From Escherichia phage CSP1C: a stretch of DNA of 55,550 nucleotides. The position numbers and the translations under genes are program-made. The notes beneath the pieces are model-generated. The model saw nothing but the letters and a program-made list of their open reading frames with translations. It searched no databases and was not told where the DNA came from. The stretch lies in sequence record PQ202980, one strand, 5' to 3'. How positions within the stretch are numbered: the stretch's first letter is position 1; every line of letters starts with the position of its first letter. Positions 44,442-50,169 of this stretch are shown here, piece by piece.

Positions 44442-45105
44442 AGTTTTTGTAATCGCAAAACCTTCGCAAAACTTTGTCTTTCCTGCATTATATTAAACGA
44501 TAGTGCTAGTGGCCAGCATAGTGGCATCACCTCTTATAGTGCGCCGTTACTGGCTTCGCTATAGTGTGCCACTATACGCTCACTATACACTAATAACTAA
44601 TTTTATTTTGTTTAGTGGTAATAAAGTTTTGGGTTTTTGGGGGGGACCCCTATATATCCCGGGAAAAACAAAGAAATAGTAGTAGTAGTGAAAAACATAG
44701 TGAAATGCCACTATCCTCACTATCACTACCAATTTAATGTAATTCATGGGGGTGTCTATGTACCAAAAACCTAAAACTTTCAGTCAACAGGCTAAAAACG
44801 GATAGAAACTAAAAGTTAATAAGTAATAACATAAATATATATAAAATAAGGATTTATTAGTAATGTATATAGTACCTATTGATATTATTTGAATGTTTTT
44901 GGGTCATTGTTAAAAAGTCCCAAAACTCGCAAAACCTGAACGGATGCAGATCAAAAATGAGAAATCAAGTGCTTTTGAGGGAAATTTATTGAACTATTGT
45001 GATCGGAAGGTATATCAAGCTATAATGCGCTTAATCGCGGGATATTGGAGGAGGACTTTATTGCGCGGTTAACCGGACCAGTAGGAGGGCTGGCCCGGAA
45101 GTAGT
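44442..45105. promoter_or_regulatory. AT-rich repeat-dense non-coding region (candidate operator cluster / origin)
   Basis: About 660 bp without credible ORF; at least 6 CACTATA/TATAGTG heptamers, 3 copies of TCGCAAAAC, (AGT)4, a G7 run and a TATAAT-like box. Confidence 0.5.
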
Positions 45106-46434: not shown

Positions 46435-46507
46435 GGTATAGCTCCTTTCGTTAAAGTTAGTTTGCTTATTATTGCCTACCGTGATAGTAGGCAAGGTATA
46501 AGAAAAC

Positions 46508-46756
46508 TTATTGCACGATTGCTACGAAATCGGCGGTTGCGATATCCATGCTTGCGAAAGCAACGATGCTATAGTCGGTGTCGTTTTCGGCGTTAAACGC
46601 TTTGAGGAACTGCTGTACCGCTGCTTTATGGTTAAGCGTTACGTCGATAGCATAGTCCCAGCTATAGACTTTGCGCTTGCCAAAACCTTTAACTGCAATG
46701 CGCGCGCCTTTGGTGTTAGTTGGTGCCAAAAATTTGGTGATGATAGAAGTAGCCAT
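46508..46756 (-). CDS. hypothetical protein
   Basis: 82 aa ORF preceded by a palindromic promoter-like element. Confidence 0.45.
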   Translation of the reverse strand: MATSIITKFLAPTNTKGARIAVKGFGKRKVYSWDYAIDVTLNHKAAVQQFLKAFNAENDTDYSIVAFASMDIATADFVAIVQ

Positions 46757-46829
46757 GATGTATATCCTCGTTTTGTTTAAGTTGACTTATTATTGCCCAG
46801 TCAGATCAACTAGGCAAGATATAAATCAC

Positions 46830-46979
46830 TTAATTTGTAATTTTATCTACACAGTAGTCAGCATCAAATTCCGCCGGACTAATGCCCAATTTGTCAATTG
46901 CAGCCGCTTCAGCTTCAACGAAATTGTTGGCTTCAATGAACGCGACGATAACACCGTATTTATTAATAACTTCGTACAT
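46830..46979 (-). CDS. hypothetical small protein (49 aa)
   Basis: ATG 46979; product MYEVINKYGVIVAFIEANNFVEAEAAAIDK resembles the adjacent small ORF. Confidence 0.35.
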   Translation of the reverse strand: MYEVINKYGVIVAFIEANNFVEAEAAAIDKLGISPAEFDADYCVDKITN

Positions 46980-46982
46980 GGT

Positions 46983-47138
46983 CTAGCCCTTAATTTGTAC
47001 CAAATCGTATTCCTTGTAAATTTCGCTAATGTACATATCGAACTGGCCCATTAAGAAGATTTCGGCCTCCTCCCAGCTTGGAGCAGATACATAACCAGCT
47101 ATTTTACCGGACGCGAGTTCCACTAATTTAAATTCCAT
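46983..47138 (-). CDS. hypothetical small protein (51 aa)
   Basis: ATG 47138 with SD AAGGGT; product MEFKLVELASGKIAGYVSAPSWEEAEIFLMG. Confidence 0.4.
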   Translation of the reverse strand: MEFKLVELASGKIAGYVSAPSWEEAEIFLMGQFDMYISEIYKEYDLVQIKG

Positions 47139-47350
47139 GATGCAACCCTTAATGTGGTTAAGCAGTATTGCTTTGTTGAAGTAATAATAGCCTTGCATCG
47201 TGATATTGAATAGGCCAAAAGTGCTATTTTGATATTGTTTTGCATCTAGTGAAAATTATGCTTGCCCTGCATGTTTAGCACAAACGGCCTAATTAACATC
47301 ACATCATCTGGAGTATTCGCGCGGGCGCACACATGCTTATAAGGTGGTGC

Positions 47351-47466
47351 CGGATCGACCAGGTGGGAGCGGTGCACAGGATCGACCAGGGGCATCCGGC
47401 GCCCTGCGTGCGCGGAGCCTACCAGGTGGAAGCAGCTCCTGCGTGTGCCGGAAATACCAGGGGCGC
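47351..47466. repeat. GC-rich degenerate direct repeats containing ACCAGG(T)GG (4 copies)
   Basis: ACCAGG cores at 47358, 47385, 47421 and 47456, each in a related 15-20 nt context, inside an otherwise AT-rich intergenic region. Confidence 0.55.
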
Positions 47467-47516
47467 GCGAGCCCATGCACTTTACAAAATATTTTTATAA
47501 AAAGTGCAAAAAGGTG

Positions 47517-47560
47517 TAGACACATGATCGGTCTAGCACTACTATATACACATACCGCAA
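47517..47560 (+). promoter_or_regulatory. promoter/operator-like element TAGACACATGATCGGTCTAG
   Basis: Palindromic AGAC-N-GTCT element with GATC core about 60 nt upstream of the ATG at 47597; near-identical copy at 48357. Confidence 0.45.
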
Positions 47561-47596
47561 GGGTACTACAAATTAACTAATTCACGGGGGTACAAA

Positions 47597-47860
47597 ATGG
47601 TCCGCATCCTGGAACGTTATAAAAACGAAGCTACTGGCGCTATTGCATTCAAACGTATGTTAGTAAAACAAATCGACGGTTTATACCGTGTTGTTAAAGA
47701 AGTCGATTACGGCAACGGCGCAGGGGTGAGCACCACTATCGTCCCGGGCATTAAAGCGTATAAAACTTTAAAAGGTGCCGAGAAAGCCTTAGCCGCCTGG
47801 AAACCTGCTCGTTATCAAATGTCTCGTGTCGAAGGGCTTATGCAGGAAGGTAAAATCTAA
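47597..47860 (+). CDS. hypothetical protein
   Basis: 87 aa, first gene of the + strand block. Confidence 0.5.
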   Translation: MVRILERYKNEATGAIAFKRMLVKQIDGLYRVVKEVDYGNGAGVSTTIVPGIKAYKTLKGAEKALAAWKPARYQMSRVEGLMQEGKI

Positions 47861-47925
47861 GTTTGTTTATACAATGGGCATTAATACAGTGCCCATTAAG
47901 CTAACTAATCATATCGAGGTGTATT

Positions 47926-48210
47926 ATGTCCATCGTTACTATGTCGTTCTTCGACCATTGCAATAACGAAAAACAAATTATTGTTAACCTGCAAAAAGGG
48001 CTGGTTATCGCACGCAATGCTAACCGCCAATGCATCGCGCTAACCGATTTTGCTTTCCGCCTTAACGTGGACAACACCACCGCCAAAAATATCGTTCACG
48101 ATACAGCGATGGAAGCCGCTCATGCTGCGAAGGATAAAGGTATCCGCGCAGCACGCGAAATCATGCACAAAGCGCTCGGCATCACGTTCTTCGTTGGCAT
48201 TAAGGGGTAA
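47926..48210 (+). CDS. hypothetical protein
   Basis: 94 aa ORF. Confidence 0.45.
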   Translation: MSIVTMSFFDHCNNEKQIIVNLQKGLVIARNANRQCIALTDFAFRLNVDNTTAKNIVHDTAMEAAHAAKDKGIRAAREIMHKALGITFFVGIKG

Positions 48211-48215
48211 CTACT

Positions 48216-48359
48216 ATGGCACGCAAATACTCGCTTACACGCGCACAGCACGCGTTATTATTGCAGGTTATGCGCATGAAGTACGAAAAGACTACATGGG
48301 CGCAAGCCATGCAGACAGGGCGCGAGTTCTACGCGCAATTAATAGCACAAAATGCCTAG
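48216..48359 (+). CDS. hypothetical small protein (47 aa)
   Basis: ATG 48216 six nt after the upstream stop; product MARKYSLTRAQHALLLQVMRMKYEK. Confidence 0.35.
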   Translation: MARKYSLTRAQHALLLQVMRMKYEKTTWAQAMQTGREFYAQLIAQNA

Positions 48360-48400
48360 ACAACATGATCGGTCTGGTGGATACTACACACATCAACCAA
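48357..48400 (+). promoter_or_regulatory. second copy of TAGACA-CATGATCGGTCT promoter/operator-like element
   Basis: TAGACAACATGATCGGTCTGG about 60 nt upstream of the ATG at 48418. Confidence 0.45.
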
Positions 48401-48417
48401 ACAACGGGGTAAACAAA

Positions 48418-48657
48418 ATGCGTAGTTTCAAATGTGTAAGCGTAAACGATAATGCTAAGGCTAGTGCTAAGGGTCTGTTCACAGTAGGTAAAGTGTATGA
48501 CTTCAACATGGAAAGTTATATACACATAACCCTCACGGGCGTAATGTTCGGCGACGTTGGTGCTGTACGCTGCGATTTAAACAAGTACACGGAAAAGGAA
48601 TATGCTCTTATCAGCCGCTACACGGGCGAGCCGTTAGCTGTGTTCCATGCAGCTTAA
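48418..48657 (+). CDS. hypothetical protein
   Basis: 79 aa from ATG 48418; the track's upstream extension is rejected. Confidence 0.45.
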   Translation: MRSFKCVSVNDNAKASAKGLFTVGKVYDFNMESYIHITLTGVMFGDVGAVRCDLNKYTEKEYALISRYTGEPLAVFHAA

Positions 48658-48729
48658 GCTATAACGCACACAGCGCCACGCTAGCGAGCTAATGTACATA
48701 GGCAATGGTAATGCATTAGCTCGGGCGAA

Positions 48730-48920
48730 ACAGGCGCACAGCGTCGCGCACAGCTCGCACAGCGCACACCGACCCACGCAGGCCCAGCCGCGCGACCCGA
48801 CCCATCCTTTTCCAGGTACTTGGAGCGCCGGGGCGTGCCCTGTCCATCCTGATAGTAAGTGCTTGTCTAAATCTCACCCATCACATAGCCTATCCACCTA
48901 CATCCATGACCCCACCTACC
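48730..48920. repeat. GC-rich short tandem repeats (CGCACAGC x3; CCACCTAC x2)
   Basis: gcgcacagcgtcgcgcacagctcgcacagcgcacacc and ccacctacatccatgaccccacctacc within a 430 bp gene-free interval. Confidence 0.5.
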
Positions 48921-49091
48921 TTCTTTTTGAATATATTGCGCTCATCCTTTCTAAATATATGGATTTTGGTAGTAAATTCTGAGTCGTCAACGTATAATTC
49001 GTCTTGTAGCTGCTCCATAGCTACCATCTTTAAGCGGATGCAACCAATTTCTATCAATTCTTACCAGTTTTACAGCATCAAGGAGGTATTT

Positions 49092-49343
49092 ATGTGCGAC
49101 TCCAGTGCAAGCACCACGACAAACTCCTCCAGCAATGTGGTTACAGAGGTAAATGCAATGCGATTAGGTCCATATCGCGGCTATTATGGTCGTGCTGCAT
49201 GGAATGACGCTACTCAACGTTTTGAAGGCTGGATTATCTGCCCGGAACGTGTTAAATTTCACTCCGTAAAAGAGAAAAATATCGTTCTTAATTTTCAAAA
49301 ATGTGTCACTAAATATGTAGAGGAGCAAGAAGAATGCGTGTAG
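49092..49343 (+). CDS. hypothetical protein
   Basis: 83 aa from ATG 49092 with strong SD AAGGAGG. Confidence 0.45.
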   Translation: MCDSSASTTTNSSSNVVTEVNAMRLGPYRGYYGRAAWNDATQRFEGWIICPERVKFHSVKEKNIVLNFQKCVTKYVEEQEECV

Positions 49344-49585
49344 GGGAGGGTGAAAAGGTTGTTAACTATTTCGGGACTCAGGTTATAGTACCTGCCTGGG
49401 TTAATTGGCTCGCGGTTGATAAATGTGAAGAGCTCTATGCTTACGAAAACGAGCCTTATATAGACGAATGCGACGATTACGACAAATGGTATGAGGATAC
49501 GGGTAAATCCATCTTTATTGGCGAGTTTCCTTTCGAAGAAGGTTGTTGGGTAAATTCTTTAGTTAATGTTAGTTCGGAGGCTTAA
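49334..49585 (+). CDS. hypothetical protein, member of 3-copy paralogous family
   Basis: VPAWVNWLAVDKCEELYAYENEPY matches ORFs 50172 and 28040. Confidence 0.45.
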   Translation: MRVGEGEKVVNYFGTQVIVPAWVNWLAVDKCEELYAYENEPYIDECDDYDKWYEDTGKSIFIGEFPFEEGCWVNSLVNVSSEA

Positions 49586-49876
49586 ATGCGTGTAGAAGAG
49601 ATTGTTGAAGGTAAAGAGTATCGTTTACTGACCGATATTGGTGGTGTTGGGTATACTCCTGATGATGCAGCTTGTTTTAACGTCCTTCCGCAAGGCGCTA
49701 TCGTAACAGTTAACAAGGTTGTTACCGATTTATACAGCGTTCATGACGGCAGATGGCCACATGCAGTTATTGTTACCTTCGGTAAAGATGGATATGTGGA
49801 TCTTGACGGCGAAGATGACGCTTACGAAGTTGCTTATACCGGTCTTGTAAGCCCCAATTTCCTGGAGGAAGTGTAA
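49586..49876 (+). CDS. hypothetical protein
   Basis: 96 aa ORF. Confidence 0.45.
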   Translation: MRVEEIVEGKEYRLLTDIGGVGYTPDDAACFNVLPQGAIVTVNKVVTDLYSVHDGRWPHAVIVTFGKDGYVDLDGEDDAYEVAYTGLVSPNFLEEV

Positions 49877-49926
49877 TTATCAATCTATAATGGGCTCTAC
49901 GGAGCCCTTAATTATCTGGAGGAGAT

Positions 49927-50169
49927 GTGTTTCCGCGGAATGGTTTAAAGTGGACTGCAAGGGATCTTGCTTTGCTAAAGGTTAACGCTGGAAAGATATC
50001 GGCGGAAGAAATAGCTTACTACCTTAGAAGAGACGTTGAATCTGTACATATCAAAGCAAGTAGGCTAAAGTTGTCCTTAGTAACAAACAGATGCAAGCGC
50101 GGGCACGAACGGGTGTACCGCAAAGGGCGCTGGCGCTGCAATGAATGCCGTAAACTTAAAGGATACTGA
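49927..50169 (+). CDS. putative small DNA-binding protein (HTH-like plus C-terminal Cys/His zinc-ribbon-like motif)
   Basis: 80 aa; C-terminal CKRGHERVYRKGRWRCNEC. Confidence 0.35.
   Translation: MFPRNGLKWTARDLALLKVNAGKISAEEIAYYLRRDVESVHIKASRLKLSLVTNRCKRGHERVYRKGRWRCNECRKLKGY

Follow-up and report, generated by a model that had tools for sequence, protein, structure and literature searches.

What is the function of the 430-nt interval at positions 48661-49091 of Escherichia phage CSP1C (sequence record PQ202980; the window is the whole stretch of 55,550 nt)? The flanking genes, both on the plus strand, end at 48657 and start at 49092, leaving the interval free of genes as a first-pass annotation made from the sequence alone had described it; that annotation suggested a non-coding RNA (ncRNA), a recombination site or a replication origin. 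The interval was found to be non-coding and conserved, and to carry a base composition like that of Rho-utilization (rut) sites, which is itself conserved. It is tentatively assigned, with a probability of about 0.4, as an untranslated intercistronic spacer of a rightward early operon that exerts its effect on the RNA, as a Rho-dependent terminator or attenuator.

Among the features listed in the first-pass annotation, the strand asymmetry turned out to be the most informative. The C/G ratio of the plus strand, calculated for segments of 78 nt, peaked at 5.17 at position 48873, the maximum of the genome and about 10 standard deviations (sd) above the mean of the right arm (0.91, sd 0.40), and G made up 9% of the sequence between 48840 and 48925. 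The density of YC dimers was the highest of the right arm at 48836 (21 per 78 nt vs 6.2 +/- 3.0), and of all 100-nt segments in the 8-kb right arm, the four with the least structure begin at 48840-48870 and have minimum free energies (MFE) of -2 to -6 kcal/mol vs -21.3 +/- 5.8 for the arm. The signature of rut sites for Escherichia coli Rho is an untranslated, C-rich, G-poor, YC-rich and unstructured RNA of at least 80 nt. The core at 48800..48950 (plus strand, sense RNA) is C-rich and G-poor with many YC dimers over at least 70-80 nt, is predicted to have little secondary structure, and is untranslated by the sequence tests described below; lying between genes of the same strand, it is presumably transcribed.

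This composition is shared by the relatives. The peaks of C/G and of YC dimers stand at the homologous place in the phages STP-SP5, yong3, CAjan, GottfriedDienst and WildeMaa and in the metagenomic contig L038; the least-structured segments coincide in STP-SP5, yong3, CAjan and GottfriedDienst, but not in L038 and WildeMaa. The C/G ratio of the element is 1.6-1.9 in every lineage vs 0.57-0.75 in the adjacent genes, and the bias persists in a variant in which the middle of the element is replaced by unrelated DNA. The rut-like property of the strand is thus conserved independently of the sequence. When the pR operon of phage lambda was examined as control, the top C/G segment covered the annotated rutA/nutR/rutB, and the next C/G peak lay at the start of ninB, which we take to be the tR2 region, although the record does not annotate tR2.

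The interval is considered to be an untranslated spacer because it has no conserved open reading frame (ORF), its indels break the frames, its substitutions show no codon periodicity, and its ORFs match no Pfam or PHROG family. Six-frame comparison across the lineages detected no ORF conserved on either strand. In an alignment of nine distinct versions from the E. coli group, the interval carried indels of 1, 31, 1, 1, 1, 1, 2/3 and 1 nt, the neighbouring gene CSP1_046 none; the variable sites fell into the three phases at 16:18:18 for the plus ORF and 5:5:4 for the minus ORF, while those of CSP1_046, the internal coding control, were distributed at 7:2:14 among the codon positions. The reading frames differ from lineage to lineage: a stop interrupts the minus ORF of STP-SP5, and the Greed-type phages and yong3 have shifted frames. 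The Pfam and PHROG scans, applied to five ORFs of the interval, gave no family match. The plus ORF 48692..48982, already suspected for its low complexity and lack of a ribosome-binding site (RBS), is spurious: its ATG at 48692 is not preceded by a Shine-Dalgarno sequence and the frame is not conserved. Annotation in GenBank is correspondingly diverse. The interval is left unannotated in RCIP0359 and slur01, a minus-strand ORF of 42 aa is drawn in CSP1, Greed and OddieOddie, and plus ORFs of 92, 171, 58 and 126 aa are drawn in CAjan, KurtStettler, SeppeHuegi and Seurat, respectively. These mutually incompatible coding sequences are probably artefacts, as judged by the frame comparison, including CSP1_047 (42 aa, 48890..49018, minus strand), AJT60560.1 of CAjan (L003, 2532-2810), bas22_0078 of KurtStettler (L008, 682-1197) and gp70 of Seurat (L002, 2803-3183).

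The lack of conservation had been named beforehand as a ground for rejecting a function, but the interval was held in about 35 phage records. Being non-coding and conserved, it is probably functional. The segment 48300-49400 matched 34 phage records, of which those checked all belong to Seuratvirus, and versions of about 70% identity were found in Salmonella phage STP-SP5, Hafnia phage yong3 and contig L038. In the alignments, near-invariant blocks alternate with variable spacers. From left to right on the plus strand, Block A (ATAACGCACACAGCGCC, 48661..48677) forms a conserved left boundary and a recurrent mosaic junction; the conserved block ATAACGCACACAG also begins at 48661, and GCACACAG within Block A is unchanged in all the lineages; GCACAGC repeats follow. 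Block C (GACCCGACCCATCCTTTTCCAGGTACTT, 48794..48821), which holds CGACCC repeats and the near-palindrome CCAGGTACTTGG, is nearly invariant throughout, with a diverged copy in the GottfriedDienst variant (nhmmer match from profile position 138). Block D (TGTCCATCCTGATAGTA, 48841..48857) is the most conserved, and occurs once in the genome even when 2 mismatches are allowed. It is followed by the short block AAATCT and then by the segment 48894..48920, composed of the CCACCTAC units and Block F (CCCCACCTACC, 48910-48920), at which the universally retained core ends on the right. Beyond Block F, the AT-richer right part (48922..49091; 64% AT vs 55% for the genome) contains the blocks TGAATAT, TTGAATAT (48927-48934), GGATTTTGGTAGTAAATTCTGAGTCGTCA (48961-48989), GGATTTTGGTAGnAAATTCTGAnnnGTCA (from 48961) and CATCTTTAAGCGGATG (49025-49040), together with the RBS of the downstream gene; its identity is 96-98% in most phages of the E. 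coli group and 88.8% in OddieOddie.

Natural variants indicate which parts the element can lose. On the left side, at least four distinct neighbours join at 48661, and the homology begins at this position in Seurat, CAjan, the SLUR phages and KS_A3/S4 irrespective of the upstream gene. The cassette 48357-48657, consisting of the upstream gene and a promoter-like sequence, is absent from CAjan, GottfriedDienst and L043, a metagenomic contig of about 84% identity, where the element directly follows the stop codon (TAA) of a gene for 46-47 aa. In the middle, GottfriedDienst and Dru_SM1 have exchanged 48719-48836, including the CGCACAGC array, for 256 unrelated nt, retaining a diverged GACCC...AGGTACT block. 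On the right side, WildeMaa, SA80RD and Dru_SM1 keep about 48661-48900/48920, the remainder up to about 49133 being an HNH homing-endonuclease cassette (L015, 1725-1835; L011, 1440-1530; L016, 1385-1495; equivalent to 48922-49133 of the window). This cassette also replaces the first ~40 nt of the downstream gene (49092-49133), brings its own extended -10 sequence (TGcTAAAAT, TGCTAAAAT), and is joined directly 3' of Block F CCCCACCTACC, where WildeMaa has a run of 13 C; phiG7 and Skure gave the same pattern of BLAST matches as the cassette-carrying phages. The three natural variants show which parts are dispensable, and leave 48661-48718 plus 48794-48921 as the universal core. The eye-catching GC-rich repeats are the least essential part of the element, the array being replaced in GottfriedDienst and Dru_SM1. 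The mosaic junctions at 48661 and the HNH cassette over 48922-49133 make the earlier suggestion of a recombination site appropriate in a loose sense, but no function in site-specific recombination is indicated.

Smaller variations were also observed. Two metagenomic contigs share with slur01 and SeppeHuegi a 31-nt insertion (AACTCGTCAACTATGTTGTTGCCGACATAC...) after 48874 (loci L009, L010, L035 and L043), which is accompanied by an alternative 12-nt allele after CTGATAGTA, TCCTTGTTTGAA in place of AGTGCTTGTCTA; STP-SP5 and yong3 have closely similar TCCTTG... versions of the TCCTTGTTTGAA allele.

The element is restricted in distribution. No match was found among 5,426 E. coli genomes, as would be seen for a sequence of host origin, and two pattern scans of IMG/VR, one scan of GTDB genomes and one metagenome scan detected seuratviruses only, the GTDB matches being at chance; the IMG/VR and metagenome scans yielded the new contigs, the divergent L038 and L043. 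By these searches, the interval holds a genuine cis element without coding function, conserved among seuratviruses and limited to them.

The repeats listed in the first-pass annotation exist, with some corrections. The inverted repeat is a 10-bp stem of CGAGCTAATG (48685-48694) and CATTAGCTCG (48714-48723) with a 19-nt loop, longer than the 7 bp quoted before. The three units of CGCACAGC described as tandem are present at 48735, 48747 and 48756, but they are closely spaced (12 and 9 nt from start to start) and not strictly head-to-tail; with the variant CGCACACC they form a GC-rich array at 48734..48770, the variable and dispensable part of the element, in which the program TRF called a weak array at 48734-48768. 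Three of the five exact copies of CGCACAGC in the genome lie in the interval, one-mismatch copies stand at 48667 and 48763, and the genome-wide search with one mismatch showed no enrichment (45 found vs 43.5 expected): the signal is local clustering, not total abundance. The CGACCC units were located at 48770, 48793 and 48798, and the two CCACCTAC units, at 48894 and 48912, are the sole copies in 55.5 kb. The GC content rises up to 68-73% at 48700-48850 vs 44.8% for the genome.

A folded ncRNA is not supported. The scan of 46500-50000 against Rfam identified nothing within the interval, and ARAGORN detected no tRNA or tmRNA. The 271-nt core folded like its shuffles (z of -0.19 on the plus and -0.26 on the minus strand), and in the structure and covariance analysis across related phages, which the first-pass annotation had proposed as a check, the covariation terms of RNAalifold were positive, that is, penalising, on both strands (+1.33 plus, +0.61 minus; 12-14 sequences representing four independent lineages). 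The hairpin at 48685..48723 (plus strand), which is extended by GCGCC (48673-48677) and GGCGC (48733-48737), is the sole part of the interval folding better than shuffles, though not in every lineage: the z values are -3.6 in CSP1, -3.0 in STP-SP5 and -3.4 in GottfriedDienst, each with another stem sequence, but -0.3 in yong3 and -1.45 in L038. Substitutions of C to T in the stem, at 48685 in Greed and SA80RD and at 48722 in Seurat, keep a G-U pair only in the RNA of the plus strand, a small hint from the sequence that this may be the functional strand; KurtStettler has a change that breaks the stem.

An intrinsic (Rho-independent) terminator was considered and rejected on account of the 19-nt loop and the lack of a U-tract. 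The scan of 48661-49091 for such terminators called none, and the hairpin is followed by GGGCGAAACAGG with no T-run; the label "terminator" given by the depositors of SA80RD rests on the hairpin alone.

For the Rho-dependent terminator, the following order of events is proposed. Transcription would begin at the promoter-like sites near 47517 and 48357, and the ribosomes would leave the RNA at the stop codon at 48657. The transcripts would then traverse the hairpin and the GC-rich repeats (48685-48790), after which about 150 nt of C-rich, G-poor, YC-rich and unstructured RNA (48800-48950) would be exposed for the loading of Rho, leading to termination in the AT-richer 48950-49090, ahead of the next gene. 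Such a terminator would separate a short immediate-early set from about 6 kb of small genes downstream, and read-through might be provided by a phage antiterminator, by loss of Rho activity, or by re-initiation at a weak internal promoter.

The closest known system is the cro-cII spacer of phage lambda (rutA-nutR boxB-rutB-tR1). In both phages, an untranslated spacer follows the first small gene or genes of a rightward early operon, a hairpin precedes C-rich and G-poor RNA, and the operon reaches its top sense C/G peak there (5.17 in CSP1C; 3.0 in lambda). Like lambda, CSP1C also has a mirror-image non-coding region in the leftward arm, giving a layout that resembles pL-N-tL1 and pR-cro-tR1. 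The differences are, however, considerable. The spacer of CSP1C is 430 nt vs about 118 nt in lambda, and by inspection it has neither the boxA consensus (CGCTCTTTA) nor a short stem capped by a GNRA-like pentaloop as in boxB; unlike that of a nut site, its hairpin combines a stem of 10 bp with a loop of 13-19 nt. CGCGCTGTAA in STP-SP5, yong3 and L038 is boxA-like at 8/10 positions and is absent from the phages of the E. coli group. No N-like protein was identified in CSP1C, and its left and right regions share no motif. CSP1C is also virulent, and its dependence on Rho is predicted.

Several observations weigh against a Rho-dependent terminator. Known rut sites are degenerate in sequence; the blocks of CSP1C are far more conserved than these, and near-invariant blocks of 15-28 nt across genera are not explained by the Rho model alone. 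They might bind a regulator. The left third (48661-48800) is 30% G, folds with an MFE of about -30 and is not rut-like, and in the lambda control the YC density and the folding energy failed to single out tR1. Rightward transcription of the interval is derived from the orientation of the genes, the counts of the promoter pattern being at chance level in the pattern scan. The scan of the plus strand between the element and the downstream genes gave no convincing promoter, and an efficient terminator would therefore need an antitermination mechanism. The same base bias, read as G-rich on the opposite strand, fits a leftward transcript. Seuratviruses (Queuovirinae) have been studied for 7-deazaguanine modification of DNA, in work on defence systems with the BASEL collection, and for phage therapy; a literature search found nothing on this interval, on the transcription or regulation of seuratviruses or on their genome termini, and no transcript or 3'-end data for them.

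The invariant blocks could instead be operators on duplex DNA, recognized by a DNA-binding protein of the phage or the host that controls the downstream genes; the candidates are the near-palindrome CCAGGTACTTGG, TGTCCATCCTGATAGTA, CCCCACCTACC and TGAGTCGTCA. Conservation of the primary sequence in discrete blocks with variable spacers and no covariation is as expected for protein-binding sites, and both CCAGGTACTTGG and TGAC-NN-GTCA are palindrome-like, with symmetric changes in yong3 and SA80RD. Conserved non-coding DNA may also serve as a linker of homologous recombination between exchangeable cassettes, in agreement with the mosaic junctions at the edges of the element. The blocks are, however, single-copy and make no operator array, none of the neighbouring genes can be recognized as coding for a DNA-binding regulator, and binding to duplex DNA cannot explain a strand bias that is conserved even where the sequence is replaced. 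This regulatory region is therefore regarded as rather unlikely.

Equally doubtful is the proposal that the blocks ATAACGCACACAG, GACCCGACCCATCCTTTTCCAGGTACTT, TGTCCATCCTGATAGTA and CCCCACCTACC make up a Seuratvirus-specific cis-acting module of an undescribed kind. Such a module may be an RNA or single-strand element at which a phage protein toggles the loading of Rho, constituting an N-independent antitermination switch in a virulent siphophage, or it may be the priming site of an origin that depends on a transcript or an R-loop.

A leftward transcript is the explanation that makes use of the same strand bias, and is considered quite unlikely. The promoter-like TTGACG-16-CAAAAT (48963..48990, minus strand), the best sigma-70-like match inside the interval, would drive a G-rich ncRNA that copies about 300 nt of the C-rich template and stops close to the hairpin; this RNA would oppose rightward transcription, by an antisense effect or by interference, in the manner of lambda oop, or form a stable R-loop that primes replication, and a G-rich non-template strand is known to promote R-loops. 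The site lies in Block H, among the most conserved segments, within the right part that is 96-98% identical in most phages of the E. coli group, and the cumulative GC skew has its minimum near 49.1 kb. STP-SP5, yong3 and L038 retain the -35 TGAC and the 16-nt spacer, but in L038 and STP-SP5 a key base of the -10 hexamer, T6 or A2, is missing, and matches to the promoter pattern occur at chance frequency. The promoter is replaced by the HNH cassette in WildeMaa, SA80RD and Dru_SM1, with the same match pattern in phiG7 and Skure, and the phages that lose it all keep 48661-48921. No terminator follows on the minus strand, neither folding nor covariation supports a minus-strand RNA, and the substitutions that preserve the pairing of the hairpin do so only on the plus strand. 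A promoter-like site facing a C-rich template to give a G-rich RNA is found likewise for ColE1 RNA II, T4 oriF/oriG and lambda oop; unlike these systems, the CSP1C promoter is missing in endonuclease-carrying relatives that retain the core, and there is no sign of a terminator, of a transcript or of a processing site of the RNase H type.

The replication origin of the first-pass annotation fared poorly, and is held to be improbable. It would employ the octamers CGCACAGC, GACCCNACC and CCACCTAC as iterons for the 778-aa phage primase (its helicase domain is assumed), and would be unwound at the hairpin and the AT-richer right part, on the model of P4 ori or lambda ori. Like the ori/crr octamers of P4 (alpha primase-helicase) and the iterons of lambda ori, the direct repeats are short, clustered and essentially unique to the interval, the element is single-copy, and a primase, a helicase and a polymerase are encoded by the phage itself; in the divergent lineages STP-SP5, yong3 and L038, GCACAGC repeats are again present, spaced 11-13 nt apart, and the skew minimum near 49.1 kb could be that of an origin. 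Iterons should be kept across relatives, but the CGCACAGC array is unrelated sequence in GottfriedDienst and Dru_SM1, and the repeats are one-stranded in orientation and irregular in spacing (12 and 9 nt). The element lies at least 5 kb from the primase gene and from the nearest replication gene, within an operon of small accessory genes, neither beside nor inside an initiator gene as in P4 and lambda; its right part, 64% AT and replaceable, does not look like a strongly AT-rich unwinding element; a compositional bias of one strand over 250 nt is unexpected for sites bound as duplex DNA; and GC skew follows gene orientation in this genome. An origin here is less likely than the Rho-dependent terminator because a better and denser repeat cluster exists at 44500-44720, which heads the block of replication genes and gathers 9 of the 24 ATAGTG hexamers of the genome in both orientations.

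Resemblances to a DnaA box, an IHF site, ops/RfaH, a Chi-like octamer, a T7 primase site and a G-quadruplex were dropped, none being conserved across the lineages.

An element for mRNA processing or stability is distinctly improbable. The irregular hairpin of about 20 bp at 48673-48737 would divide the upstream from the downstream message, either as a cleavage site of the RNase III type or by stabilising a 3' end, as in the early region of T7, with the remainder as spacer. It stands directly after the upstream stop codon like the intercistronic hairpins of T7, its paired bases add up to about two helical turns, and in three lineages it beats the shuffles with a different stem sequence in each. 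Unlike the T7 hairpins, its structure is not kept in all lineages, being weak in yong3 and L038 and broken in KurtStettler, and it covers less than 20% of the conserved element; it could account for the left 15% of the interval only, and leaves unexplained both the blocks and the base bias that are conserved 100-250 nt farther on.

Real small proteins, encoded by the plus ORF 48692..48982 (96 aa) or the minus ORF 48890..49018 (42 aa, CSP1_047), are very improbable, a coding gene being largely refuted by frames that differ between lineages, frame-breaking indels, substitutions without codon periodicity, the lack of a Shine-Dalgarno sequence and the lack of a family match: some GenBank records annotate one or the other ORF and a C-terminal PTYLLFEY...GSKF stretch is readable in three lineages, but open frames of this length are expected anyway in C-rich, T/A-poor sequence, and the nucleotide changes in the minus ORF mostly alter amino acids.

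The genome around the element consists of three blocks: structural genes, rightward, at 1-18.5 kb; replication and metabolism genes (primase, helicase, polymerase, ligase, SSB and exonuclease), leftward, at 19-47.2 kb; and small genes without known function, rightward, at 47.6-55.5 kb. CSP1C, a Seuratvirus, is a clear-plaque mutant of CSP1 with a 4,672-bp deletion and has lost the lysis-suppression genes CSP1_020-023 (PMC13577005). Identity to Cronobacter/Escherichia phage CSP1 (KY982929) is 100% over the segment 48300-49400, and 99.6-100% over the four stretches that were compared (48300-49400, 48661-49091, 47280-47520 and 44469-45105). The interval lies 1.1 kb into the third block, between CSP1_048 and CSP1_046. 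CSP1_048 (79 aa, 48418..48657, plus) is an optional cassette together with the promoter-like TAGACA-17-GATACT at 48357-48385 (plus), which moves with it; CSP1_046 (83 aa, phrog_24875, 49092..49343, plus), preceded by the RBS AAGGAGG at 49080-49086, shows the codon-phase signature of a coding gene and no indels. A second promoter-like sequence, TAGACA-17-TACTAT at 47517-47545 (plus), has the identical 13-mer ACATGATCGGTCT. The pair follows the pattern TAGACA(A)CATGATCGGTCT...TACTAT/GATACT, and two copies are also present in STP-SP5. A terminator-like hairpin (GGGCTCTACGGAGCCC, then TTAATTATCT) at 49892-49917, just past the gene 49586-49876, is the first site downstream of the interval that resembles an intrinsic terminator.

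Two more non-coding regions of the genome were examined. The gene-free region 44469-45105 (637 nt, sense = minus strand), between CSP1_058 and CSP1_059, follows the first small genes of the leftward arm and holds the top sense C/G peaks of that arm. It includes the ATAGTG cluster and is a candidate origin or operator array. Its first ~340 nt are conserved in most of the seuratviruses matched, STP-SP5 matching positions 154-342 of the query only; the half with the repeats varies, and annotation of the region is mostly lacking. Neither a second copy of the element nor a motif common to the element and this leftward region was found. The other is a GC-rich island (up to 71% GC) at 47300-47480, in the intergenic space from which the leftward and rightward blocks diverge, with four direct repeats of about 25 nt placed 27-36 nt apart (GATCGACCAGGTGG / ATACCAGGGGC) and the inverted pair GCCGGAT/ATCCGGC. 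The phages CSP1, KS_A8, Dru_SM1, CAjan and Greed carry this island. It looks like an optional insertion of about 135 nt because it is absent, with the flanks alone matching, in RCIP0359, slur01, Skure, KurtStettler, phiG7 and yong3.

A possible counterpart outside the seuratviruses was noticed in the Providencia Craquatrovirus phages PSTCR7 (L049, 718-1360) and PSTCR4 (L050, 601-1245), in which a 640-nt gene-free, A/C-rich and G-poor region occupies a comparable position. Pairwise local alignment with the element gave a score of 47 vs 25.8 +/- 3.3 for shuffles and was suggestive, with resemblance to Blocks A and D-G, but the nhmmer profile of the element did not detect the region, and homology is unproven. 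The Providencia region starts with a canonical intrinsic terminator, continues with A/C-rich sequence containing TAACAGTC four times and ATAGTGTAACAATAACAA twice, and has several strong promoter-like sites (TGGTATAAT, TTGACA-17-TACATT and TGCTATTAT).

For those who work with these phages, the GenBank ORFs across the interval (CSP1_047, AJT60560, bas22_0078 and gp70) are probably spurious, and the element, as a hotspot of recombination and homing endonucleases, is relevant to engineering. Ranking the segments of a single transcription unit by sense C/G ratio, by YC density and by folding energy may be applicable to other phage genomes, although in lambda the C/G ratio was the one measure to single out tR1. 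The element is most likely of an ordinary kind, a Rho-dependent transcriptional boundary. If it is indeed a Rho-dependent stop, it would be the boundary between the immediate-early and the later genes of seuratviruses, and would imply a mechanism of antitermination or Rho evasion in a virulent siphophage.

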